Program-made: the position numbers and the translations under genes
Shown: positions 2,346-64,000 of the stretch, piece by piece
Position numbering within the stretch: the stretch's first letter is position 1
How the letters are laid out: every line of letters starts with the position of its first letter
The notes under the pieces: model-generated
Database searches by the model: none
What the model saw: the letters and a program-made list of their open reading frames with translations, nothing else
What the model was told of the DNA's origin: nothing
Virus record (IMG/VR): IMGVR_UViG_3300045988_091566
Source: a virus
DNA length: 64,000 nucleotides
Direction: 5' to 3' (one strand)

Positions 2346-2658
2346 AAGTTTATATAATAGATGTATTGATTTAAGTAAAGATTATTTTGATAGAGATTAT
2401 TATAAATACCCTGAATTATAGCAATGGGCTGAAACTACTAGAAGGTATATTATTCAGGTATGGAGATTACAAAATCAATTAAAATACTATAAAGATAATA
2501 TAGACTTAAATAATTTTAAGAATTATAATCATTATAAATACGGAAAATCTCTTTTAGAGAGTTTTATAGGAAATGTTTTTGATTGGAAATTTATAGATTA
2601 TTCCAATAATGTAACTTATACCCATAATATAAAACATAAATATGCCAAGAGTAGATGA
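2311..2658 (+). CDS. hypothetical protein (about 115 aa) with one in-frame TAG; overlaps the previous ORF in another frame
   Basis: Frame 1 reads ATG 2311 ... TTA TAG CAA TGG GCT ... AGA TGA at 2656-2658. The translation MFIRRVGTLIDESLYNRCIDLSKDYFDRDYYKYPEL*QWAETTRRYIIQVWRLQNQLKYYKDN... looks protein-like. Confidence 0.35.
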
Positions 2659-3778
2659 AAGTAAACAAAATAAAGGAGTAAATAATAATACTCGGAATAA
2701 ATAGATGGCTATAGATATGGAATATTATAATAGATTAAATTATCCTAGGTTTAAATCTCCATATCTTGGTGCTAAATATTAGTAGAGAGTTATTCCAGTT
2801 AGAACTTTAAATGGGATACGAGATGTATTTGTAGATAATAGAGGAACTATAAAATAGGGAGGACATACTCATTCTAAATTATATAATTATAGTAATAAGA
2901 ATAGAACCCATCCTATAAAAGGAGCATATGCTAGAGAAGTAGATAGTTGGAATAATAATACTAGTCCTATTAAAGCATTAGTTAATTCAGGAATAGGTTA
3001 TGCTTTAGCTCCAGCTGCTTAGGCAGTATATGATTATACTAAAGGTGCTTTAGATATATCTAAGAATCCAACTAAAGCTAGTAATTATTTAGTAATGCTT
3101 CCTGTAATAGGATATGCTGTAAAAGCTCCTTTAAAACGTGGAGTAGAAGTAGCTATGAGAACTTCTAATGATGCAAATCCTATAGAAGACATAGTATATA
3201 ATATGCATAAAGCAAGTCCTAAAAAGCATGTTGGAGTATTATCTTATATATCAACTGGTGTAGGTTACAATACTTATGCTCCTGAAGCATATACTGGATT
3301 TTAGAAAGCAGCTAAAGGTAATGATATGATTGATGCTTATTTATATAATAAAACTATAAATCCTTCTTATGGAGTAAAGAAAATAAATGTAGATTATGGT
3401 CCACATGAGAATTATATAAGAAAGATATATCCATATAAAGATATTCCTGTATATGAAAATACTGAAACTTTAGATTTCTTTACTAAGAAACCTATGTAGA
3501 AAGCTTCTAATATAACTAATAAAACTCCTTGGAAAGGTGCTAATAATAATCTAGACTTTGGAGATAATGGAGTTGATGCTGCTGGACATTTAGTTTAGGA
3601 AGGAATATCTAATGGTAAGAAAGTATATAGAGCACAAGATATTTGGAAGTTTAATCCTGATGAATATAAGTAGAAATGGAGTTCATATGATTTAGACAGT
3701 AAAGCTGTATTAGGATTAAAAATATTAGATAAATTAGGAACTCCAGTAATAGTAAGAACACCATGGCTGTATAGGTAA
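2642..3778 (+). CDS. hypothetical late/structural protein (378 aa), TAG-recoded (about 9 in-frame TAG)
   Basis: Frame 2 is continuous from ATG 2642 to TAA 3776-3778 if TAG is read as sense. The ORF-track fragment 3095..3304 lies in the same frame. No in-frame TAA or TGA. Confidence 0.55.
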
Positions 3779-4899
3779 TTACTAACAATGATTCAATATA
3801 TGATTATTGGTATGAAGATGGGTAGTTGTATGGTAGAAGAAAATCAAATAAAGTCCCTTTTAAAATTAATTCTGATAAAGCTAATAGTATAATATTTCCA
3901 TAGGTTTAGGCTAAAGGAGTAGATCCTACTAAACCAACATCTACCTTAGTATACCATCCTGCAAAATATAAAGAAATGCCCACTGCTAAAAAAATATCTA
4001 TTCCTAAATAGGAAAAAGAAACAATATGGGAACGTGGTAAATAGTTGATTAATTTAGTAGGAAATGGATTAAGTAGAAAACTATAGTTATTTTTTGATTC
4101 AGAACCTGAGCATACTAGTAAAAGAATTAAAATTTCTAATAAAAAAATAACTAAAAATAAGAGGAGAGAAAATTTAGAAATAGAAATATCTCCAAATAGT
4201 TATACTATAAATGATACTACTAAAATAAACTCTAGAAGATATCGTATACCAGAATCCATAAATTTAACAAAGCATACTTTTGGTTATAGAAATAGAGGTG
4301 ATTATACTCCTATAAATAGTGTAGCAGCTCCTATTACTGCTTTTTCTAATTTCAAATCTAAAGAAAGCATATCTCCTAATAATTAGAATTATATAGGTAT
4401 AGATTCTATTGGTAAATTTGTTTTTGGTAAATATTCAGATATTCCTAATGGAAGTATGATTTCTCCAACATTTAAAAATACAGTTACTGGTTTTAAAACA
4501 GATTCTAAAGATAATGTATTATTCATGGAAAGTAATTCTAATGGTTCTAGAAAAAGTCCTATATTAAATGCTATAGTAAATGGTAAATCAGTAAATAACA
4601 GACTAAATTTCTTAGCTAATAATAATAGAACTGATGAATATGGTTCTATAGCTGGAGGAAGAATAATTATATAGGCGGGTAAAGAAGTTCGTTTAGTTTC
4701 CGGAAGTATAGATAATATTAGAGATGAGATAGAAGCTATGAAATCTAGAAACAATGTTAAAACAGTAGATTTATATACTTTAGATAATGGTACTTATCAT
4801 TCAGGATTAAGAACTTTTGATAAAATATTTACTAGAGATGACTTACTAAAATATGATGCTCAAAATACGGGCGGAGGAAATTTTTTATATATAAAATAA
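3763..4899 (+). CDS. hypothetical late/structural protein (378 aa), TAG-recoded (about 9 in-frame TAG)
   Basis: Frame 1 is continuous from ATG 3763 to TAA 4897-4899 with TAG as sense (MAVQVITNNDSIYDYWYEDG*LYGRRKSNKVPFK...). The ORF-track fragment 4456..4674 lies in the same frame. Confidence 0.55.
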
Positions 4900-9734: not shown

Positions 9735-9917
9735 ATGAAAGCAATAATCGAAAAAGGAAAAGCAGATAATAATATTCAAAGCTGCTTTATATCAGAATGT
9801 GGAATTGAAATAATATTTCATAATAATGACTTGGCAGATAAATTTGCTAAATCATTAGATCCATTTCATATCTCATATGTAAAGAATGGAAATAAAATAA
9901 CTATATCACATAATTAA
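9735..9917 (+). CDS. hypothetical protein (60 aa)
   Basis: ORF track. Confidence 0.35.
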   Translation: MKAIIEKGKADNNIQSCFISECGIEIIFHNNDLADKFAKSLDPFHISYVKNGNKITISHN

Positions 9918-12215: not shown

Positions 12216-12677
12216 ATGATAAATGTATTTCAAAATGAGAAGGAATATACAATTTCTGTGACTATTCCTATTAAAAAAGTAAATTTCTCTGAAACTCCAT
12301 CAAAAAGAGATTTCAAGAAGTTTGCAGAAGAAGTATTTGAGGCTTATACTAATATTATAGTAGAAGCTTTGGAAGCTCGAATGAATGCTTGTGTTAATGG
12401 TCTTATTAAGCATTCAGATGATGTAAAGTATTGTGATAGTAAATATATTACATACACTAGAAAATCTGGTGGAGAACATACTTTCTCTTATAATGCTTAT
12501 GATACTATGCAAAGATTAGTTAAAAAAATTCAGCAATATAAGTTGGGTGAATTAACTAAGTCTGAACTCAAACAGATTGCTAAAGCTCTTTATTGGGTTG
12601 AAGATAAATCAGATATTGGAAAATATACATTCCAGGACTTAATTGATGTAATCGATGAATACCGAGAGTTTAAATAA
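12216..12677 (+). CDS. hypothetical protein (153 aa)
   Basis: ORF track. Confidence 0.45.
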   Translation: MINVFQNEKEYTISVTIPIKKVNFSETPSKRDFKKFAEEVFEAYTNIIVEALEARMNACVNGLIKHSDDVKYCDSKYITYTRKSGGEHTFSYNAYDTMQRLVKKIQQYKLGELTKSELKQIAKALYWVEDKSDIGKYTFQDLIDVIDEYREFK

Positions 12678-13029
12678 AAAAATTGTATCAGGTTGTGAGA
12701 GTCTTGCCGGTAAAGCTCTCACAATAGATCATGATGCTAGAACTTATCACATTGGTGATAGAGTAATTCCATTTTCTTCTTGTGTTATTAAAGAAGGTAA
12801 AATTTATTACTTGACACCAATGTGTAAAGTTCTTGTTGATATGGGTTTTAAAGGCGTAGCAGATTTTACCTCTAATACAGTTATTTGTACTAGTTTTGAT
12901 AATTGTAATCGCAATATTAAAACTGTAGGACTTGTAACTATCGACGACAGAGTCTTTATTAAGATTACTCTTAATTCAGAATTTCCAATGTATGAAGGTT
13001 ACGAATCTTTAAGAAGTGAAGTTTATTAG
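12655..13029 (+). CDS. hypothetical protein (124 aa); ends TAG followed immediately by TAA
   Basis: ORF track. The terminal codons are TAT TAG TAA. Confidence 0.4.
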   Translation: MNTESLNKKIVSGCESLAGKALTIDHDARTYHIGDRVIPFSSCVIKEGKIYYLTPMCKVLVDMGFKGVADFTSNTVICTSFDNCNRNIKTVGLVTIDDRVFIKITLNSEFPMYEGYESLRSEVY

Positions 13030-15716: not shown

Positions 15717-15796
15717 GCGGAGTTAGCTTAATGGCTAGAGCACCTTACTTCCACAATTCATGAGAGGTTATATTGGTTCGAATCCTTTACTCCGTA
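15717..15796 (+). tRNA. atypical tRNA-like gene (80 nt); anticodon arm not canonical, isotype undetermined
   Basis: Acceptor GCGGAGT/ACTCCGT and D arm GCTT-AATGGCTA-GAGC are clear, and it contains GGTTCGAATCC. Positions 26-52 form only a stem (ACCTT/GAGGT) around a 17-nt loop. The T stem is weak. Confidence 0.4.
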
Positions 15797-15812
15797 CTAA
15801 CATTTAAAAAGA

Positions 15813-16227: not shown

Positions 16228-16311
16228 ACGGTAGTAGCTCAGTGGTTAGAGCATCTCTTTTTATAATAGGTCATTTCGAGAAGGTCATTGGTTCGAATCC
16301 TTTCTACCGTA
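16228..16311 (+). tRNA. atypical tRNA-like gene (84 nt); anticodon arm not canonical, isotype undetermined
   Basis: Acceptor ACGGTAG/CTACCGT and D arm GCTC-AGTGGTTA-GAGC are clear. The region ending ATTGGTTCGAATCCTTT is identical to the corresponding region of the 15717 gene. The middle 34 nt fold only as a TCTC/GAGA stem around a 20-nt loop. Confidence 0.4.
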
Positions 16312-16419
16312 CAAATTTAATTTGATATATTGTTAGTGTGTTTGGATAAATCCTGACTAATAAATTTATTAGTATAGGTAGGTGTTACCACTATTCTCCT
16401 TTATAGAAATGTGGGCTAT

Positions 16420-16489
16420 GGAGATATAGCTCAGAAGGTCAGAGCACGGTGAAAATCCCGAGGTTGTGGTTCAATTCCACGTATCTCCA
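16420..16489 (+). tRNA. atypical tRNA-like gene (70 nt); no canonical anticodon stem found
   Basis: Acceptor GGAGATA/TATCTCC, D arm GCTC-AGAAGGTCA-GAGC, T arm TGTGG-TTCAATT-CCACG. The 19 nt in between (ACGGTGAAAATCCCGAGGT) do not form a 5/7/5 arm. Confidence 0.35.
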
Positions 16490-28584: not shown

Positions 28585-29097
28585 AGAGTTCTAAATTAGA
28601 ACTCTTTTAAGTATGGGGCATTCGTGGTTTTGATTGTATAGGAGATAAGAAGCACAGCAAAGACAGTTGGAAAGACAACAAAACAATAAATGCTAGAGTT
28701 ATCAATATGACTTCTGTTTCTTACGCTATTGCAGCCTAAGAAACCGAGCAGCACTTGCTTAGGAACAGAAAGGTGCACTATTTTCCATTTCTTTTAAGTT
28801 CTCTGTATACTTTAGGAACAGAGTGGTGGAAGTTGACAGTATATTAATCCTGTCAACCCTAACAGACAAGGACAGTCTTTAAAACCTATGCTGTAAGAAC
28901 GTTTTGATGCAAATATGCAAGACTGGAGTTTAATTTCGGACTCGGTATAGAGTGATTTATACAATAATTAATCGGATGAATTCAGGGAACGCTAAAAATA
29001 ATGCTTAGCTAGAACTAACATTATTCATGCCAATCCTGAGCTAAGCATATAGTACACTATATGAAAGTGCAGAGACTACTGGAGAGATTTAGTTCTC
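28585..29097. other. about 510-nt GC-elevated non-coding region immediately 3' of the minus-strand HNH gene; multiple hairpins; candidate structured RNA or intron-like element
   Basis: No credible ORF. Minus-strand hairpins GTTGACAG..CTGTCAAC, CCTAAG..CTTAGG and GCTTAGCT..AGCTAAGC. Confidence 0.3.
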
Positions 29098-29727
29098 TTA
29101 ATTACCAGCTTGAGCGTCCGACCCTTCATTAGAAGGTGATGATATAGTCCACTCCTCATCGAAAGATGAGGTATAGGAAGATATTAGTTTTAAAAACTTT
29201 TTAGTATCTAAATCAGACATTTCAGATTTCATAAAATTTATTGGAGTAGATATAAATTGTACATTTCCTTTGATATAGCCTTTAGAAGAATCTATCCTAT
29301 CAAGAGAGGCTCTGTAAATAAAAGGAATTTTTTTTAGATTTCCATAAGTAGGGAGAATAAGGTCTAGTCCTGTGTAAGGACATTTACCATTTTGTTTTTC
29401 CCATACTTCTTTTAAATATTCTAAATCTATATCAACTTCCTTAAATCTTTTTTTAGCATTTCTAAGGGAATATCTAAAAGGTGTATATTCATCTTCATGA
29501 TTATTACATATATTTAATAGGTGTTCTCTTTGTTTATCTGAAATTGGTCTGCCAGCTCTACTTTTATTATTAAATTTAGCTGCACATGATCTAGAACAAA
29601 AATTATGTCTTCCTAATCTAACATTTCTTTTGTACTCGGATTCAGGTTTCTGAAATTCCTTACCACAACAATCACAAGTGATTGTAACTAACTTTCTACC
29701 AATACAATACTTTTTTAATTCTGTCAT
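29098..29727 (-). CDS. HNH homing endonuclease (HNH_3-like; 209 aa)
   Basis: N-terminal Cys-rich region CDCCGKEF..CSRSCAAKF. C-terminal NGKCPYTGLDL...SLDRIDSSKGYIKGNVQFIS, matching the LDRIDNxKGY HNH_3-type signature. Confidence 0.75.
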   Translation of the reverse strand: MTELKKYCIGRKLVTITCDCCGKEFQKPESEYKRNVRLGRHNFCSRSCAAKFNNKSRAGRPISDKQREHLLNICNNHEDEYTPFRYSLRNAKKRFKEVDIDLEYLKEVWEKQNGKCPYTGLDLILPTYGNLKKIPFIYRASLDRIDSSKGYIKGNVQFISTPINFMKSEMSDLDTKKFLKLISSYTSSFDEEWTISSPSNEGSDAQAGN

Positions 29728-37272: not shown

Positions 37273-37503
37273 TGTAATGATATTTCATATAACATAAAAA
37301 GCTAAATCAGAGTAATTACCTGACTATGGGAGTTTTACTGTTCTCCTGCTTTTTATGTAAATTTTAAACAGTAATTAAAAAAATAGTACAATATGAAGAA
37401 ATTCAAAGAATGCACCAGTGAAGAAATTAAATTAGCTATATCAAATAGCGAAAGTTTAAATTAGGTTTGTAAGTAGTTATTATGTACCAATAATACTTAC
37501 AAT

Positions 37504-38109
37504 ATGAATAAAATAAAAGATTTTATTAAATCAAATAATTTAAGTATAAAACATTTTAAAACTAGATATTCTAAGGAATCATACGATAAAAATCCTAAAG
37601 TATGTAAATACTGTGGAAAAATTATTCCTTATGAAAAACGAGTTAATGATTTTTGTAATCATTCTTGTGCAACTAGTTATAATAATATTGGAGTAGTACG
37701 CAATAAACCATCTTTACCTACTTATTCACTCTGTTTAAACTGTGGAAAAGAAATTACTAAAGGAAATAAATATTGTAATAATACATGTAAAGCAGAATAT
37801 GAAAGAAAGGAGTATATTAAAAGATGGAAAGCAGGGAAAGAATCAGGTATTATTGGAAAAGATAAAATAGCTACAGCAGTAAAAATATATTTAAGAGAAA
37901 AATTTAATAATTCTTGCCAAAAATGTGGGTGGAATTAGGTAAATTATTTCACAGGTTTAGTACCATTGCAAATTCATCATATTGATGGGGACTGTTTAAA
38001 TAATAAAGAATCTAACCTTTAGTTATTATGTCCTAATTGTCATGCTTTAACAGAAAATTTTGGTTCTAGAAATAAAAATTGTACTAGAATTGATAAAAGA
38101 ATACGGTAA
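37504..38109 (+). CDS. HNH homing endonuclease with N-terminal Zn-ribbon repeats; contains 2 in-frame TAG codons (37939, 38020). Either TAG-recoded or a pseudogene
   Basis: The ORF-track segment 37504..37938 ends at TAG. The same frame continues VNYFTGLVPLQIHHIDGDCLNNKESNL*LLCPNCHALTEN... to TAA 38107-38109. The HNH motif (HHID...N...CPNCH) lies downstream of the first TAG. Confidence 0.55.
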
Positions 38110-51246: not shown

Positions 51247-52017
51247 ATGAATTTAAATTTTGGTGGTCTTGGTGATATTAATCCTACAAGTAAGAAAGGT
51301 CTTCGTCCTTATGGAATTTATCTTGTTCAGTTAAAAAGTGTAGAAACTAAGGAAGGTCAAGGTAAACAAGACCCTAGTACAACTTGGAAATCTCTGGTAC
51401 TTCATTTTGAAGGAGAGCAAGGAACTTATCAAGAATCATTGTTTTATCCTAATGAAAGTTCTGCTAAAAGATATGAGGGTAAGAGAAAGGATTCTAAGGG
51501 TGTAGAATTCCCATATGTACTTCCTTCAGCATTTGAACAGCTTAAAGGTTTTATGCTGCATATTATAACAGTAGTAGGTGGTGATAAAGCTAAAGAATTG
51601 TTTATAACTAAAACTCCTGCTTGTAAGAGTACTGACCAATTCATGCAGCTTTTCCAGGCAGTATTAACTAAGCATTGTATGAATAAAAACTTTTATTTAA
51701 AGCTTAGCGGTCGTAAGGAAAAGAAAAAGGATGAAAAGGGAATCTCAAAGGAAACTGGCAATGTATTTGCTAAGATTCCTGATATTGGAGCTATTAATAG
51801 TGATGGACAGTTCTATATCCGTGATAATTTTGCTAGCTTAGAGGAAGATAAATTGTCATTCTTTAGTTATGAGATTAAGCAGAAAGAGGATATGGAGAAG
51901 CGTAAGCCTACTGCTCCTATGCCAGCAGCTGATTCAGAAGAGGCTAAATCTATTGACTCTACTGAAGGCAAGGAGGCTCAAGATGAAGACTTCGATGCTA
52001 TGCTGGCAGATATGTAG
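51247..52017 (+). CDS. putative ssDNA-binding protein (T7 gp2.5-like?) with an acidic C-terminal tail ending in an aromatic residue (256 aa)
   Basis: C-terminus EAQDEDFDAMLADM. Located in the replication module, upstream of the primase. Confidence 0.35.
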   Translation: MNLNFGGLGDINPTSKKGLRPYGIYLVQLKSVETKEGQGKQDPSTTWKSLVLHFEGEQGTYQESLFYPNESSAKRYEGKRKDSKGVEFPYVLPSAFEQLKGFMLHIITVVGGDKAKELFITKTPACKSTDQFMQLFQAVLTKHCMNKNFYLKLSGRKEKKKDEKGISKETGNVFAKIPDIGAINSDGQFYIRDNFASLEEDKLSFFSYEIKQKEDMEKRKPTAPMPAADSEEAKSIDSTEGKEAQDEDFDAMLADM

Positions 52018-52040
52018 TAATTATAAAGTAAGTAGTTTTT

Positions 52041-53097: not shown

Positions 53098-53595
53098 GTG
53101 CACGATTATACATCTATAGAGGAATGCTCTGAGAAAACTAAAATAAGTCAAGCAGCTCTTAAAATTAGATGTAATAAATCTGGAAAAATGGCTGATGGCA
53201 CTTTATATGAATGGATAGATAGCCATACTAAGAAGAGTTATCAAGCTAAAAAATCTAGAAATAAAGGTCATAAATATGAATTAGATGTTATAAAGGAACT
53301 TACTGATTTAGGTTATAAAGGATTAGTTAGTTCTAGATCACAAAATCGTAATTTAGATAATGCAAAAATAGATATAGCAGAAACAGAGGATCATTTAAGT
53401 TGTTATGTTCAGTGTAAAGCCACAGCTAATATTCCAAACGTAGCAAAAATAAATGCTGAAGTTGGTTATACTGACAGACCTCTTGCTATTTTTTGGAAAA
53501 AACAAAATGTAACAACTGGATTAAAAGAATTTGTGATTATACCAAAAACTTATTTTTATAGTTTATTAGAGCATGACAAGGTTAACAACAAGTGA
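53098..53595 (+). CDS. hypothetical protein (165 aa)
   Basis: ORF track. Confidence 0.45.
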   Translation: MHDYTSIEECSEKTKISQAALKIRCNKSGKMADGTLYEWIDSHTKKSYQAKKSRNKGHKYELDVIKELTDLGYKGLVSSRSQNRNLDNAKIDIAETEDHLSCYVQCKATANIPNVAKINAEVGYTDRPLAIFWKKQNVTTGLKEFVIIPKTYFYSLLEHDKVNNK

Positions 53596-54613
53596 ATTTA
53601 TAAAATAGGCTAAAAATGCTCATGGTGATAAATATGACTATTCTAAGGTAATTTATAAAACAAAAAAAGATAAGGTTTGTATAATATGTCATAATAAAGA
53701 TGAGAATGGAATAGAGCATGGAGAATTTTGGTAGACTCCAGATCAACATTCTAGAGGACAAGGTTGCCCTAAATGTAAATTTGAAAAATTATCTAAAGAT
53801 AGGGCTGATACTAAAGAAACTTTTATTGAAAAAGCTAATAAAGTTCATAATAATAAATATAATTATGATAAAGTAGTTTATAAAAATAGATATTAGAAAG
53901 TTATTATAACTTGCCCTATTCATGGAGACTTTATTCAAGATCCTAATAATCATCTTAGTGGTAAAGGTTGTCCAATATGCGGAAGAATAAGTGCTGCTAA
54001 AACGCACACTATGTCTAACGATGAATATATAAGAAGAGTCCAAATTACTCATCCTGAATATGATTATTCTATTACTAATTATACAGGAATAAATAATTCA
54101 ATTCAATATATTTGTCCTAGTCATGGTGTAATAACTCAAAGTGCTCATGACCATTTATATAATCAAGCTGGATGCCCTAAATGTAATCAATCTCATGGCG
54201 AAAAAGCTATACTTCAATATCTTAAAAATAAAGATATTTGGGTAATTCCTCAATATGACATTCCTATAGATACTAATATTAATTATACCGGTAAAGCTTA
54301 TATAGATTTTTATTTACCTGAATATAATGTATTTATAGAATATAATGGAATACAACATTATACGCCTGTGAAACACTTTGGAGGTAAAATACAGTTTGAA
54401 AAACAAAGACTTAGAGATAATGCTATAAGAAAATATTGCTCTATAGAAAATATAAAACTTATTGAAATTCCTTGGAATATAAATTTAAAATTAATACCTG
54501 ATATTTTAGATTATTCTTTACAAAACTTAGATAAGCCTTCTATAGCATTTGTAGGAATGGATTTCTTCTATACTTTATTAGAATGTTATTCTAAAAGTAA
54601 TAATTTAATATGA
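53573..54613 (+). CDS. putative homing-type endonuclease: repeated CPxHG..GCPxC Zn-ribbon modules plus a C-terminal DUF559/Vsr-like PD-(D/E)xK nuclease domain; 3 in-frame TAG (53606, 53732, 53894)
   Basis: Frame 2 is continuous from ATG 53573 to 54613 if TAG is sense. The ORF-track piece 54011..54613 is in the same frame. Repeats KYDYSKV.YK...KV.IICP.HGEFW*TP..H..G.GCPKC. C-terminal IDFYLPEYNVFIEYNGIQHY. Paralog at 61575. Confidence 0.55.
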
Positions 54614-60509: not shown

Positions 60510-60739
60510 CTAATGAAATTACTAAAGATAACAAGACACTACTTATCTGCTATAAAAATTCATATCCCTATGGGCAAATATTATACAACGGGAGTAAGTG
60601 GATATATATTACTAGTGTAGATATAAATAAAGTTAATTATGCGGAAGATACTCCTCATAATTTAGTACAAAAATTATTAGATAAAGAAATTATTGATAAC
60701 ATAATGTTTTTCACATATAATGGAGAGAATGCCAACTGA
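60503..60739 (+). CDS. hypothetical protein (78 aa)
   Basis: ORF track. Confidence 0.4.
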   Translation: MVTNEITKDNKTLLICYKNSYPYGQILYNGSKWIYITSVDINKVNYAEDTPHNLVQKLLDKEIIDNIMFFTYNGENAN

Positions 60740-61514
60740 ATTTACTTTAGAAGAAGTATTAAAAGGAAAAGCTACTAGTATTAAGGGTAAAGATTATCTT
60801 CCTACTAGAGGATATATTGAGCCTTTCCTAGAAAGAGTTCAAAAATTAACTTCTGATATTAGAGTACATGTAAAATTACCTGATCAAATTACTTATAATA
60901 AAAATGGTGATATAGATACTGCTGATTTAACTTTTAATAGAGTATGGTTAGAAGCAGTATTACCAAATGAATATTCAGTAGATAATCATAAAGAAACTAT
61001 AAATATGTTATATGGATTAGATACTAGAAAACCTATAATAAAGTTTTTTAGAACAGGATTAAATATGGCATGTTTAAATATGTGTGTATTTAATCCTAGT
61101 TATATAAGAGTTTCTGAATTATCTCCTGATAAACCTGTGGATTATTCTCCTGTAAAAACTTTAGTAGAAGCTACTGACTCATTGGGAATTTTCCTTAAAA
61201 CTTTGAAAAATACTGAATTTAATACCTCAGAATCTAACATAAATATCAGTTTAGGATATTGGGTAAGACAAGCTATAACTGAATTTGAAGATAATGGTTT
61301 TGGTAAAATAAAGTTAGCTACTTCTGAAGTTATAGCTTCTTATAAACGTATGTTTGAAGATTCTAAATCTGATTATTATATAGGAATTAATGGAGAAGCT
61401 TCAATGTTTGATGTTTATAATAGTTTTACAGAAGGTATTTCAAATGATAATAATAAGGATATTATGAATAAATTTGAAAAATGTGTATTACTTAAAAAAA
61501 TTTTAAATTTGTAA
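60720..61514 (+). CDS. hypothetical protein (264 aa)
   Basis: ORF track. Confidence 0.5.
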   Translation: MERMPTEFTLEEVLKGKATSIKGKDYLPTRGYIEPFLERVQKLTSDIRVHVKLPDQITYNKNGDIDTADLTFNRVWLEAVLPNEYSVDNHKETINMLYGLDTRKPIIKFFRTGLNMACLNMCVFNPSYIRVSELSPDKPVDYSPVKTLVEATDSLGIFLKTLKNTEFNTSESNINISLGYWVRQAITEFEDNGFGKIKLATSEVIASYKRMFEDSKSDYYIGINGEASMFDVYNSFTEGISNDNNKDIMNKFEKCVLLKKILNL

Positions 61515-61574
61515 AAATTTATTTGCTTCTTGTACAAATCTATATATAGTCATCTTAACTAAATCATAATACAG

Positions 61575-62906
61575 ATGAATAAAGAATATTTTATTAAAAA
61601 AGCTCAAGAAATTCATGGAAATAAGTATGATTATTCCCTAGTAGAAGTTTCTAGATCAAAAGATAAAGTTAAGATAATATGTCCTATTCATGGAGTGTTT
61701 GTGCAAGAAGCAAATTCACATTTATAGGGACGAGGTTGTGCTATTTGTTCAGGTAAAAAATTTGATTTAGATACCTTTATACGAAAAGCAAATAAAATTT
61801 GGAATAATAAATATGATTATTCCAAAGTAGTCTATACGGGTACTAATAACAAAGTATGTATCATATGTCCTGAACATGGAGAATTTTGGCAAACAGTTAG
61901 TAATCATTTAAAAGGACAATGTGCTTGTAAGGAATGCCGAGGAAAAAGTAAAGATTTTAAAGTAATTAGATCCAAAGAGGATTTTGTAAAAGCTGCTAAT
62001 GAAAAGTATAATTATAAATTTGATTATTCAAAAGTAGATTTTAAAGGTAGTAGAGAAAAAGTTTGTATTATATGCCCTGAACATGGAGAATTTTGGTAGT
62101 TACCTTATCAGCATTTAAATTGTAAAAATGGATGTCCTAAATGTACTAATACTTTCAGATTTACTCAAGATGAATTTATTAAAGAATGTGAGAAAATTCA
62201 TCCCGAATATACTACAAATAAAACTGTTTATACTGGAATAACTAATTCAGTAATTTTAACTTGCCCAAAACATGGAGATTTTAGCATATTAGCATCAACT
62301 TTAATATACCATCATGGATATTGTCCAGATTGTGCTATAGAATCTTATACTTTAACTAAAGAAGATTTTATAAAAAAAGCTAGAGAAGTTCATGGTTGGA
62401 AATACGATTATAGTGAAGTTAATTATATAAATTATAAAACTCCAATTACTATCATTTGCCCAAAACATGGTAAATTTGAGCAATCACCAGGTAATCATTT
62501 AAAAGGGTGTAAATGCCCTGAATGTGCTAGAGAACAAATAGAGCCTAGTAAAGGAGAATTATTTATAAAAAATTTATTAAATAAATATCATTGTAAATAT
62601 AAATTTCAATATGAGATAAAGACTAAAGAAATAGCACGTAATTCTAATAAAATTATAGTAGATTTCATAGTAAAACATAATGATTGTATTTATATAATAG
62701 AATATAATGGAAAACAACATTATGAATTTATACCATTTTTTCATAATAGCCAAGAAGATTTTCAAAAACAAATTAGAAGAGATAATTTATTAAGAAAAAT
62801 ATGTAGTAAACATCCTGGAAAATTAGAATTGATAGAAATTCCTTATAATTATTCTAATTCTAAAATAATAGATACACTCTCTTTTTTAGATGAAACAAAA
62901 ATTTAA
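61575..62906 (+). CDS. paralog of the 53573 gene: Zn-ribbon-repeat plus DUF559-like endonuclease with 2 in-frame TAG (61725, 62097)
   Basis: Frame 3 is continuous from ATG 61575 to TAA 62904-62906 if TAG is sense. Repeats KYDYS.V.Y.....KV.IICPEHGEFW*LPYQHL...GCPKC. C-terminal IVDFIVKHNDCIYIIEYNGKQHY. Invisible in the ORF track. Confidence 0.55.
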
Positions 62907-63006
62907 TTTTGAAATAACTATATAAGCACTATATTATTAGTTCAGTACTAGTATTATAGTGCTTATTTCGTAGATGATTTAAAATGTTAATTTATAAATG
63001 TTATTT

Positions 63007-64000
63007 ATGGTAATAAAGAGAGACGGAACTAAAGAAGAATTTAACAGAAACAAAATTAGAGATGCTGTACTAAAGGCTTTTGGAGTTACCCAAAATTCTA
63101 GTAAGACAATGGACGAAGATATTTACAGAGCAGTTACTGAGATAACTAATTCTGTAGTAGAAACTGAAGATCAATCTATTGAGGATATTCAAGATCAAAT
63201 TGAAGAACTCTTAATGGATTTAGGATATTACAACGTAGCTAAAAAATATATTTTATATCGTAAAGAACGTGAAGATATTAGAAATCATGCTACTAGGGAT
63301 ATTAAATTTATTCATAATTTTGTAAAGTCTGATAATACTGCTAATGCTACTATTGATGATAATAGTAATGTAGGAACTAAAGGTATTGGAGTATTAAACG
63401 CTGAAATACATAAAGTCGATAATAAACTTACTAATACAGAATGGTGGGAAAGTTTTGTAAAGAAGAGAGACCCTAACTTTAATATAAAAGTTATGAGGAA
63501 TGACTTTAAAACTATTTTGTATCCTCATGACTCATCTTCTCAAGTAGGAGAACCATATTGTATGGCAGCTTCTATGTATCCTTTCTTGTTGTTTGGATTA
63601 GAGAAATTAGGAGGTAAATCAGCTGTTCCAAAGAACCTTGATTCATTTTGTGGTATTTATGTAAATTTAAACTTTGCATTAGCCTCTGAAATTAAAGGAG
63701 CAGTAGCTACTCCTGAGTTTCTGATGTATATGGATTATTTCTGTAGAAAAGAATGGGGAAATAATTATTATCTCAAACCAAGTGTAAAAATAACTACAGA
63801 TTATTGTATAAAACAGAAAACTATTGGCAGTCAAATTGATCAATATTTCCAACAGGTAACTTATTCCATTAATCAAATAGCAGGAGCTAGAGGAATGCAG
63901 TCCCCATTTACAAATTTTTCATTCTTCGATAAATATTTCTTTGAAGGTATGTTTGGAGAATTTGTATTTCCAGATGGAACAAAGCCAGAATGGAATTCTA
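63007..64000 (+). CDS. nrdD: anaerobic ribonucleoside-triphosphate reductase NrdD (class III RNR), N-terminal part; runs off the window end
   Basis: N-terminal ATP-cone VIKRDGTKEEFNRNKIRDAVLKA. The segment ILYPHDSSSQVGEPYCMAASMYPFLL...VPKNLDSFCGIYVNLNFALASEIKGAVATPEF parallels, from memory of the E. coli NrdD sequence, IHYHDLDYSPFFPMFNCML...PPKSISTATAV...QVASHIYGGTT. The frame is open from ATG 63007 to position 64000. Confidence 0.7.
   Translation, partial: MVIKRDGTKEEFNRNKIRDAVLKAFGVTQNSSKTMDEDIYRAVTEITNSVVETEDQSIEDIQDQIEELLMDLGYYNVAKKYILYRKEREDIRNHATRDIKFIHNFVKSDNTANATIDDNSNVGTKGIGVLNAEIHKVDNKLTNTEWWESFVKKRDPNFNIKVMRNDFKTILYPHDSSSQVGEPYCMAASMYPFLLFGLEKLGGKSAVPKNLDSFCGIYVNLNFALASEIKGAVATPEFLMYMDYFCRKEWGNNYYLKPSVKITTDYCIKQKTIGSQIDQYFQQVTYSINQIAGARGMQSPFTNFSFFDKYFFEGMFGEFVFPDGTKPEWNS

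Follow-up and report, generated by a model that had tools for sequence, protein, structure and literature searches.

Two related genes, A and B, lie on the same strand of the 64,000-nucleotide stretch of viral DNA analysed here (IMG/VR record IMGVR_UViG_3300045988_091566; hereinafter, the window). The coordinates of the genes, of their parts and of the linked segments of neighbouring genes are collected in Table 1. The product of gene A consists of three zinc modules, a Vsr-like nuclease domain and a tail of 19–25 aa; that of gene B has five such modules followed by a nuclease domain of the same type.

A and B can be aligned from end to end (36% identity, E = 6e-48, BLASTP), and many off-register alignments between the repeats were found besides (1e-20 to 1e-44). 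Together with the Pfam matches and the module alignment given below, this bears out the preliminary description of A and B as paralogous modular proteins. It had also reported that both ORFs contain TAG, and at the coordinates in Table 1 each of them is indeed open only when TAG is read as a sense codon. The proteins matched PHROG families 559, 681, 9084 and 7140 with E values down to 3e-66, the labels of these families being "endonuclease", "homing endonuclease" and "intron encoded nuclease"; an NCBIfam search with genes A and B gave zero matches.

Table 1. Genes A and B, their domains and in-frame TAG codons, and the linked segments of the neighbouring genes (window coordinates).
Feature	Position	Strand	Basis or remark
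Resolvase-like gene (RusA/Holliday-junction-resolvase-like; whole gene 53098-53595), diverged 3' two-thirds	53268..53595	+	Linked to gene A
Gene A	53573..54613	+	346-aa homing-endonuclease-like ORF, TAG = Gln, stop TGA
Gene A zinc array	53576..54199	+	Module alignment; Pfam DUF723/DUF4379/CapR
Module A1	53576-53803	+	Module alignment
Module A2	53804-54007	+	Module alignment
Module A3	54008-54199	+	Module alignment
In-frame TAG, gene A codon 12	53606..53608	+	
In-frame TAG, gene A codon 54	53732..53734	+	EFW-TAG
In-frame TAG, gene A codon 108	53894..53896	+	
Gene A nuclease domain	54185..54538	+	Homology to modelled gene B domain
Remnant of the original 3' end of the resolvase-like gene (...MDFFYTLLECYSKSNNLI, then stop)	54557..54613	+	In-frame fusion to the end of gene A
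264-aa gene upstream of B (whole gene 60720-61514), diverged 3' two-thirds	61043..61514	+	Linked to gene B
Gene B	61575..62906	+	443-aa homing-endonuclease-like ORF, TAG = Gln, stop TAA
Gene B zinc array	61575..62549	+	Module alignment
Module B1	61575-61760	+	Module alignment
Module B2	61761-61964	+	Module alignment
Module B3	61965-62156	+	Module alignment
Module B4	62157-62348	+	Module alignment
Module B5	62349-62549	+	Module alignment
In-frame TAG, gene B codon 51	61725..61727	+	HL-TAG-GRGC; TAG in the L002 orthologue too
In-frame TAG, gene B codon 175	62097..62099	+	EFW-TAG; paralogous B2 codon is CAA
Gene B nuclease domain	62520..62903	+	AF2 model, fold comparison, homologue alignment

Tandem Zinc Modules

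The modules of A and B repeat with a period of 62–68 aa (about 65 aa), and the C, HG, C and C of the pattern C..HG..C..C are invariant in all eight of them; module A1 has a 7-aa insert inside the knuckle. The preliminary description had counted two to three copies of about 45 aa, which proves to be the length of the conserved core, while the number of copies is three in A and five in B. In Pfam, DUF723 matched gene A with 34.9 bits (1.4e-8) and gene B with 63.4 bits (1.8e-17, five stretches) at a curated cut-off of 20.9 bits, DUF4379 matched gene B with 29.9 bits, above its cut-off of 24.5 bits, and the CapR model matched the modules below threshold (E 0.0058). The DUF723 and DUF4379 matches identify the repeats as real domains and rule out that they are low-complexity sequence. 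Judging by these profiles and the module alignment, the arrays are CapR/DUF723/DUF4379-type fingers with C-H-C-C as the predicted zinc ligands.

In the full-length model of the gene B protein (pLDDT 86.7, pTM 0.35), single modules are predicted with confidence and their mutual arrangement is not. The modelled modules have a zinc knuckle in a beta-hairpin and a CxxC at the start of a helix, and they look like treble-clef fingers rather than classical zinc ribbons. This label is based on the secondary structure of the models and on the Pfam descriptions, because a Foldseek search of the full-length model against the PDB gave no match for the zinc modules and only weak PD-(D/E)xK matches. The earlier name "Zn-ribbon" does not match the finger type that the models suggest.

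Nuclease Domain

The C-terminal domain is about 115 aa long in both proteins. Its AF2 model for gene B (pLDDT 92.5) has the order alpha-beta-beta-beta-alpha-beta-alpha, and the best structural match in the fold comparison was the repair enzyme Vsr. The putative catalytic residues are E328, D363, E376, N378, H382 and D403 in gene B and, by homology to it, E210, D245, E256, N258, H262 and D282 in gene A. No variation was seen over 21 homologues at D363, E376, G379, Q381, H382 and D403, and almost none at E328; N378 is replaced by Asp in some homologues. The motif xIDF...IEYNGxQHY, noticed at the outset, is present in both genes and (nearly) invariant in the homologues.

The best hhalign alignment of the domain profile with Vsr, which was non-significant (E = 0.35) and serves only as a pointer, pairs these residues with Vsr E25, D51, F62 and H64. 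The catalytic positions also map onto E170, D196, the acidic residue at the position of Vsr F62, N208, H213 and D222 of I-Bth0305I (PMC3239194); it should be noted that the mapping onto Vsr and the EDxHD enzymes rests on the fold match together with this non-significant alignment. On the evidence of the model, the C-terminal domain of A and B is a predicted Vsr-like variant of the PD-(D/E)xK fold and carries the EDxHD motif.

Searches of PDB sequences with the gene B protein and with an 18-sequence domain profile gave only chance-level matches, with nothing below E = 0.7 for the profile; triosephosphate isomerase and Snf1 kinase, which appeared among them, were dismissed as such, and fold comparison was used instead. 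The lack of significant sequence similarity to characterised EDxHD/Vsr-like members in the profile search of the PDB and in the hhalign comparison with Vsr agrees with the published label of this group as a "distantly related outgroup" (PMC12350094).

The domain had also been called "DUF559-like", which holds for the Vsr/DUF559-type fold and the conserved catalytic positions but not at the family level, since the Pfam DUF559 model (PF04480) matched neither A nor B. The DUF2726 model, which gave the one Pfam signal for this domain, matched nine of 18 family members (best E 2.3e-5), the window proteins remaining below the curated cut-off. The nuclease domain alone found 3291 cluster representatives at E <= 0.001 and, by tblastn, 53 records of cultured Bacillus, Staphylococcus, Enterococcus and Lactobacillus phages, several of which are annotated as homing or intron-encoded nucleases.

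TAG Codons and Recoding

Four family members together contain 25 in-frame stops (3 + 2 + 10 + 10), and all 25 are TAG. Three TAGs of the L002 orthologue, which is 60% identical, align with CAA or CAG Gln codons of gene B, and at the left end of the window TAG is the main Gln codon, with 9–15 TAGs in each gene. Other long genes of the window are likewise open only with TAG as sense. The use of TAG for Gln (code 15) in this phage is thus supported by codon alignment and codon usage. That the TAG lies at the same place in both genes, after EFW, holds for one codon in each (54 in A and 175 in B), and module B2 has CAA at this place; the other three TAGs occupy different positions within the modules.

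The distribution of TAG along the window is uneven: 20 replication-region genes checked between 30 and 61.5 kb have none, and the TAG-containing genes recognised within 30–63 kb are A, B and an HNH gene at 37393-38109. A search for tRNAs with a CUA anticodon, run with and without the intron option of ARAGORN, was negative both for the 64-kb window, which is part of the genome, and for the 121.6-kb relative MT835492; in published surveys, a tRNA of this kind was detected for only some 40% of TAG-recoded phages. The ARAGORN prediction "tRNA-Stop(tta)" at 16228-16312 was rejected as a TAG decoder, since its anticodon loop is 20 nt long when aligned to the Rfam model; another tRNA-like gene with an expanded anticodon loop lies at 15717-15797.

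Occupied and Empty Sites among Related Phages

Genes A and B are mobile: relatives carry both, one or neither. Of 21 close phage genomes, the window carries both genes, one carries A alone, another B alone, 16 carry neither, and one has a swapped A and a scar of B; thus, all four combinations of presence and absence occur, and the breakpoints are identical in the 21 genomes. In MT835492, which is without both genes, they lie at 53267|54557 and 61515|62906. Nineteen IMG/VR relatives were compared, and 16 of them have no match to A or B, among them L018, whose locus stops short of site A. The comparison with related phages proposed in the preliminary description therefore gave a positive result at both genes.

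The single copy of gene A in L022 is 98.8% identical, and that of gene B in L004 is 98.6% identical. The picture in L005 is more complex: site A holds another family member (A'), which has the 3' end of about 280 bp in common with gene A and different N-terminal modules, and gene B is reduced to a scar, with 61550-62843 deleted and the last ~62 bp kept. A more distant phage has a 60%-identity orthologue at the same place, upstream of nrdD. Co-travelling of the gene B-linked upstream allele with the L002 orthologue was considered and rejected (44% vs 42% identity).

The genes just upstream differ together with the sites. Compared with the allele from genomes without gene A, the resolvase-like gene has 96% identity over its first 56 aa and 38% aa identity over the remainder; the 264-aa gene, compared with the allele without gene B, has 100% identity over the first 85 aa and 45% aa identity over the remainder. 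In each of them, identity drops abruptly where the cassette begins to differ between the genomes. The diverged alleles are confined to genomes that have, or have had, a homing endonuclease gene (HEG) at that site. The remnant fused to the end of gene A is identical to the end of the intact resolvase-like gene in genomes without gene A. Promoter and terminator scans around A and B gave counts at or below the shuffle expectation.

Discussion

A protein of three to five CapR/DUF4379/DUF723-like domains of about 60 aa followed by a C-terminal EDxHD/Vsr-like nuclease of about 100 aa was described in 2025 (NAR; PMC12350094). A and B, with their 3 and 5 modules and ~115-aa domain, fit that description and are very probably members of this class of HEGs with a CapR/DUF723 array. 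The published proteins, encoded in phage group II and group I introns, form a large outgroup of EDxHD/Vsr HEGs that has thousands of unannotated relatives (PMC12350094); A and B differ from them in being free-standing, in belonging to a TAG-recoded gut phage and in carrying in-frame TAGs. A study of 2023 (PMC10448857) reported that phage HEGs bind DNA through zinc-finger arrays and that HEGs are situated at boundaries of genetic exchange. In view of both publications, the earlier remark that such proteins are poorly characterised is only half true. In the literature we found no activity, target site or homing event for any member of the subfamily of A and B.

Repeated and shuffled zinc-finger modules, as well as a position at exchange boundaries between related phages, are common to A and B and to the T5orf172 (GIY-YIG-like) HEGs with CapR/DUF723/DUF4397 repeats in ICP1 and other phages (PMC10448857), but the catalytic domains are unrelated, being T5orf172 there and Vsr-like PD-(D/E)xK here. 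The EDxHD family of homing endonucleases includes I-Bth0305I and also Hef of T4-like phages (PMC3239194). A and B have the same constellation as I-Bth0305I (helix-1 Glu, strand-1 Asp, an acidic residue two before Asn, His and Asp), and both are found in neighbourhoods of phage replication or recombination genes; however, I-Bth0305I is intron-encoded and binds DNA via NUMOD/helix-turn-helix, whereas A and B are free-standing and have zinc-finger arrays, the Asn-His spacing is four residues in A and B and five in Vsr and I-Bth0305I, and the profile search of the PDB gave no significant sequence similarity. Vsr, DUF559 and DUF2726 share with A and B the core fold as well as the placement of the metal-binding Asp and of the His, but Vsr, unlike A and B, is a mismatch nickase that stands alone and has a zinc site of its own.

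Overall, we consider it likely that A and B are two free-standing HEGs of one family which reside in the replication module of a human-gut phage with TAG recoded to Gln. Two features of free-standing HEGs, presence/absence polymorphism at a fixed site and linked divergence of the flanking gene, are found here. According to this model, the tandem zinc modules would bind DNA and give a long, asymmetric recognition site, and when a relative without the HEG infects the same cell, the Vsr-like nuclease would cut its allele within, or close to, the gene immediately upstream. The break would then be repaired by recombination with the genome that carries the HEG, so that the HEG is copied along with the adjoining diverged 3' part of the upstream gene; this diverged part would also shield the carrier from cleavage by the enzyme it encodes. 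Because A and B carry in-frame TAGs and the 20 replication-region genes carry none, the full-length enzyme is expected to appear only after amber suppression has set in, which is probably late in infection. As a counterpoint, upstream segments at 38–45% aa identity appear to reflect import from a distant lineage rather than a few immunity substitutions, and with such divergence ordinary recombination could have brought A and B in as passengers.

That import bears on a different reading, in which A and B are domesticated site-specific nucleases directed against competitors (co-infecting phages, satellites), or have another host-directed role, and spread by ordinary recombination. HEG-derived nucleases and zinc-finger domains are known to have been co-opted in phage-satellite conflicts (PMC10448857), the linked segments resemble imports from distant lineages, and a distant relative, too, has the site upstream of nrdD occupied. 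We regard this reading as unlikely, as most close relatives are without both genes, their presence is patchy and independent of each other, and in L005 a different member stands at site A with gene B lost; moreover, insertion beside conserved replication and nucleotide-metabolism genes with replacement of the linked allele is the classic pattern of free-standing HEGs. Homing and competitor exclusion are, in addition, not mutually exclusive. Still less probable, in our estimate, is that the proteins are DNA-binding regulators of the type of CapR, a transcriptional repressor (PMC10448857), or Vsr-like mismatch nickases, with a nuclease that is inactive or acts on mismatches instead of homing sites: the sub-threshold CapR match and the structural closeness to Vsr would fit, but all putative catalytic residues are conserved, the zinc site of Vsr (Cys/His-rich HGCFWHHHHC) has no counterpart in the motif of A and B, and the genes are dispensable in close relatives.

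The in-frame TAGs could also be taken for nonsense mutations in former endonuclease genes that are decaying and no longer expressed. Read with the standard bacterial code, A falls apart into fragments of 11, 41, 53 and 238 codons, and B into fragments of 50, 123 and 268; HEGs often degenerate, and the copy of gene B in L005 has been deleted. We reject this reading as highly improbable because every in-frame stop is TAG, and never TAA or TGA, in a genome of 29% GC where TAA is the commonest of the three triplets. Furthermore, A and B have zero frameshifts, the zinc ligands and the catalytic residues are preserved before and after each TAG, the TAGs of the L002 orthologue fall on Gln codons of gene B, and the need for TAG as sense extends to other long genes of the window.

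For the two free-standing HEGs, a further, more tentative idea is that the TAGs are a timing device and more than the outcome of codon drift: the products of A, B and the HNH gene, all three taken as homing endonuclease genes, would be made only after the switch to TAG = Gln. Such a family would have adapted together with recoded phages and would drive the wholesale replacement of parts of essential replication genes. We regard this as possible, although rather doubtful; if true, the nucleases would be kept off unreplicated early DNA, and homing would be tied to the period of replication and recombination.

In practical terms, standard-code gene calling will fragment genes of this type, and zinc-finger arrays with a small nuclease may be of some interest as scaffolds for programmable nucleases. 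Occupied, empty, swapped and scarred sites occur in one near-identical gut-phage population with exact breakpoints, so the empty-site sequences (MT835492 30.6-31.3 kb and 37.6-38.3 kb, equivalent to L001 4000-4700 and 11000-11700) are ready-made candidate substrates. The population thus offers a natural experiment on a branch of homing endonucleases that is large but biochemically uncharacterised. The HEG cassettes, by replacing two-thirds of the resolvase-like gene and of the gene beside B, illustrate how mosaic boundaries of phage genomes may arise, and they extend to free-standing HEGs a published idea, according to which recoded stops delay the production of endonucleases.

Reading Frames and Amber Codons of Genes A and B

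The GC content of the window is 29.3%. Genes A and B each occupy a single frame, of 346 codons with three interrupting stops and of 443 codons with two, respectively; all five interrupting stops are TAG, and the terminal stop is TGA in gene A and TAA in gene B. What the preliminary description had observed in the two genes is confirmed, and its reading of them holds up apart from small corrections.

Features of the window, putative catalytic residues and occupancy of the two sites among related genomes
Feature	Position or state	Strand	Remark
Gene A in-frame TAGs	53606, 53732, 53894	+	single-frame reading
Gene B in-frame TAGs	61725, 62097	+	single-frame reading
Gene A putative catalytic residues	E210, D245, E256-x-N258, H262, D282		
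Gene B putative catalytic residues	E328, D363, E376-x-N378, H382, D403		
Left-end ORFs	463-1818, 2642-3778, 3763-4899	+	open only with TAG as sense
tRNA-like genes	15717-15797, 16228-16312, 16420-16489, 18368-18440	+	Rfam tRNA model, 44-54 bits
Group I intron	28915-29171	+	Rfam RF00028, 85.9 bits
Endo VII/HNH-like endonuclease ORF	29098-29727	-	209 aa
HNH-type HEG-like gene	37393-38109	+	phrog_1271, 5.5e-25
Gene A	53573-54613	+	
Gene B	61575-62906	+	
Inverted repeat	62922-63003		~82 bp
nrdD	62998-64000	+	anaerobic ribonucleotide reductase
Window	A + B		
L022	A only		copy 98.8% identical
L004	B only		copy 98.6% identical
15 loci + MT835492	neither A nor B		L018 locus falls short of site A

With TAG read as sense, ORFs of ≥100 aa cover 53.1 kb instead of 41.1 kb. 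The three left-end ORFs, presumably late or structural genes, contain 15, 9 and 9 TAGs, and CAA and CAG together number 11, 2 and 1, so that TAG is their main Gln codon; none of them has a PHROG match. At both TAG positions of gene B, its closest relatives in the protein collection show Gln, but the DNA they come from itself contains TAG. An independent test is provided by the orthologue of B in L002, a more distant phage (60% identity, ten in-frame TAGs): three of its TAGs fall opposite ordinary Gln codons in gene B (T-Q-DEF, S-Q-EDF and DF-Q-KQ), and a further one stands where gene B itself has TAG (HL-TAG-GRGC). Module 3 of gene B has EFW-TAG where its module 2 has EFW-CAA. These alignments indicate that TAG is a sense codon read as Gln. 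Random nonsense decay is ruled out, since every in-frame stop is TAG in four members of the family (A, B, the L002 orthologue and the gene at site A of L005; 3 + 2 + 10 + 10 stops).

A tRNA with a CUA anticodon was found neither in the 64-kb window nor in the 121.6-kb related phage MT835492; in a published survey of recoded phages, a TAG suppressor tRNA was detected in only ~40% of TAG-recoded genomes. The four tRNA-like genes have abnormal anticodon arms (two with 17-20-nt loops, one with a shortened stem and one with a 6-nt loop), and ARAGORN assigns one of the two large-loop genes as tRNA-Stop(tta). The gene at 51247-52017 ends with TAG followed at once by TAA (52015-52020), as does the ORF at 12655-13029; such a tandem could provide a reserve stop in case TAG undergoes suppression late in infection.

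Zinc Modules and Nuclease Domain

With Gln at the TAG positions, the A and B proteins can be aligned from one end to the other (36% identity, E = 6e-48), and several off-register alignments (E from 1e-20 to 1e-44) show internal repeats. Protein A divides into three modules and protein B into five, all 62-68 aa long, with the consensus ..FI.KA...H..KYDYSKV.Y.....KV.IICP.HG.F.Q.P..HL.G..GCP.C., in which one Cys, the His-Gly pair and two further Cys are invariant in all eight. The 45 aa originally given for the module thus describe the conserved core of a longer unit, and the estimate of two to three copies is too low for gene B. Pfam DUF723 matches A (1.4e-8) and B (1.8e-17, five stretches), DUF4379 ("probable treble clef zinc finger") also matches the modules, and the CapR match is sub-threshold. 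Both proteins fall into phrog_559 and phrog_681, with E down to 3e-66, and an NCBIfam search with them gave no match.

A full-length model was built on P0001, a protein 98% identical to that of gene B; its domains are confident (pLDDT 86.7) and their mutual arrangement is not fixed (pTM 0.35), so the gene B protein is predicted to resemble beads on a string. In the model, the CP.HG knuckle sits in a beta-hairpin of each module and the CxxC of modules 3-5 lies at a helix start, which points to a treble-clef arrangement rather than the classical zinc ribbon first proposed.

In PHROGs, the C-termini of A and B match phrog_9084 ("homing endonuclease") and phrog_7140 ("intron encoded nuclease"). 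The family to which these ~115 aa belong is very large, with 3291 cluster representatives at E ≤ 0.001; its members usually stand at the C-terminus of 200-650-aa proteins and share the pattern SKGE...(i)DF...IEYNG.QHY...Q..RD...C...L(I)EI.Y. Among cultured Firmicutes phages, 53 records have homologues, several annotated as homing or intron-encoded nucleases. Sequence methods barely connect the domain to any named family: the DUF559 model matched neither A, B nor any of 18 domain members in a Pfam profile search, DUF2726 matched 9 of the 18 and stayed below the cut-off for A and B, and the domain profile gave only noise against all PDB sequences.

The structural model gives a clear answer. The AlphaFold2 model of the gene B domain (mean pLDDT 92.5) has the order alpha-beta-beta-beta-alpha-beta-alpha, and in the fold comparison other PD-(D/E)xK nucleases rank after the best three matches. 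The earlier DUF559/Vsr-like assignment therefore holds for the fold, but not for membership of the DUF559 family. Foldseek found 263 relatives at E ≤ 0.001 among viral models, from phages and giant viruses, with mixed labels ("restriction enzyme", "treble clef zinc finger", "homing endonuclease").

Across 21 homologues D363, E376, H382 and D403 of gene B are invariant and E328 is nearly so; the N378 position is Asn, or Asp in some. The catalytic set of I-Bth0305I is E170, D196, N208, H213 and D222 (PMC3239194). With hhalign, the comparison to Vsr (sequence identical to 1cw0) was non-significant (E 0.35), its best alignment pairing E328/E25, D363/D51, E376/F62 and N378/H64. The Asn-to-His spacing is four residues in the A/B domain as opposed to five in Vsr and I-Bth0305I.

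Occupied and Empty Sites among Relatives

MT835492, from human faeces, is the only phage record matching the region; it lacks A and B and is 94-98% identical on both sides. A further 19 IMG/VR relatives were recovered via the gene upstream of B. The breakpoints are identical in all empty genomes (53267/54557 for A; right end of B at 61515/62906), and the left end of the B-linked diverged tract lies at 61042-61096. Thus, the comparison with related genomes called for at the outset shows both genes to be insertions relative to near-identical genomes, with fixed breakpoints.

Site A falls within the 3' end of a RusA/Holliday-junction-resolvase-like gene (phrog_244). The occupied allele has its own, very different 3' two-thirds of this gene (aa 57-165 38% identical to the empty allele, aa 1-56 96%), followed by gene A, whose C-terminus is fused in frame to the final 57 bp of the original gene. 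Site B falls between nrdD, which lies ~90 bp downstream, and a functionally unassigned 264-aa gene whose stop codon precedes the site by ~6 bp; here aa 1-85 of the upstream gene are 100% identical between the alleles and aa 86-264 only 45%. The linked segments are so diverged that they must stem from a distant lineage, which matches the picture of nuclease genes at boundaries of genetic exchange (PMC10448857).

A further state was found in the relative L005. At site A of L005 (1776-2888) there is another family member of ~370 aa with ten TAGs and different N-terminal zinc modules, whose last ~280 bp are common with gene A. At site B of the same locus (9793-9895) the B-linked upstream allele is kept and 61550-62843 is lost, with the leader and the final ~62 bp of gene B left as a scar. 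In L002, the orthologue of B is found at the position of site B, and the nrdD downstream of it contains an intein. The states observed comprise invasion, occupancy, the swapping of modules, and deletion, the life cycle expected of free-standing HEGs.

Another mobile element is found nearby: nrdD of relatives (L001 11633-14821; L002 5393-8620) contains an intein with a LAGLIDADG endonuclease, at a position beyond the window end. Since genomes without B also contain it, the inverted repeat between gene B and nrdD is part of the nrdD leader, not of the mobile gene.

Proposed Homing Cycle and Its Timing

In the most likely homing cycle, the zinc modules would bind DNA in series and the Vsr-like domain would cut the naive allele of a co-infecting relative, in or beside the upstream gene. 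With the HEG-bearing genome as repair template, the HEG would then be copied together with the linked diverged segment, and with this segment the carrier would be immune to the enzyme it encodes.

TAG is absent from the 20 genes of the replication region that were checked (30-61.5 kb). A third HEG-like gene, of HNH type and located between tRNA genes, has four in-frame TAGs; because of the TAGs in A, B and this gene, the full-length nucleases need amber suppression. The same timing argument is already in the literature for an intron endonuclease of TGA-recoded phages. The Endo VII/HNH-like ORF, which overlaps the 3' end of the group I intron on the opposite strand, has no in-frame TAG.

HEGs combining a CapR/DUF4379/DUF723 array with an EDxHD/Vsr-like domain have been published (NAR 2025, PMC12350094) with the same architecture as A and B. 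Given this and the many phage homologues, A and B are further members of an already described protein type, a sound result that will not surprise a specialist. What the window adds is evidence of mobility at the population level and the free-standing context of both genes, together with replacement cassettes in two replication-module genes and amber codons in the HEGs.
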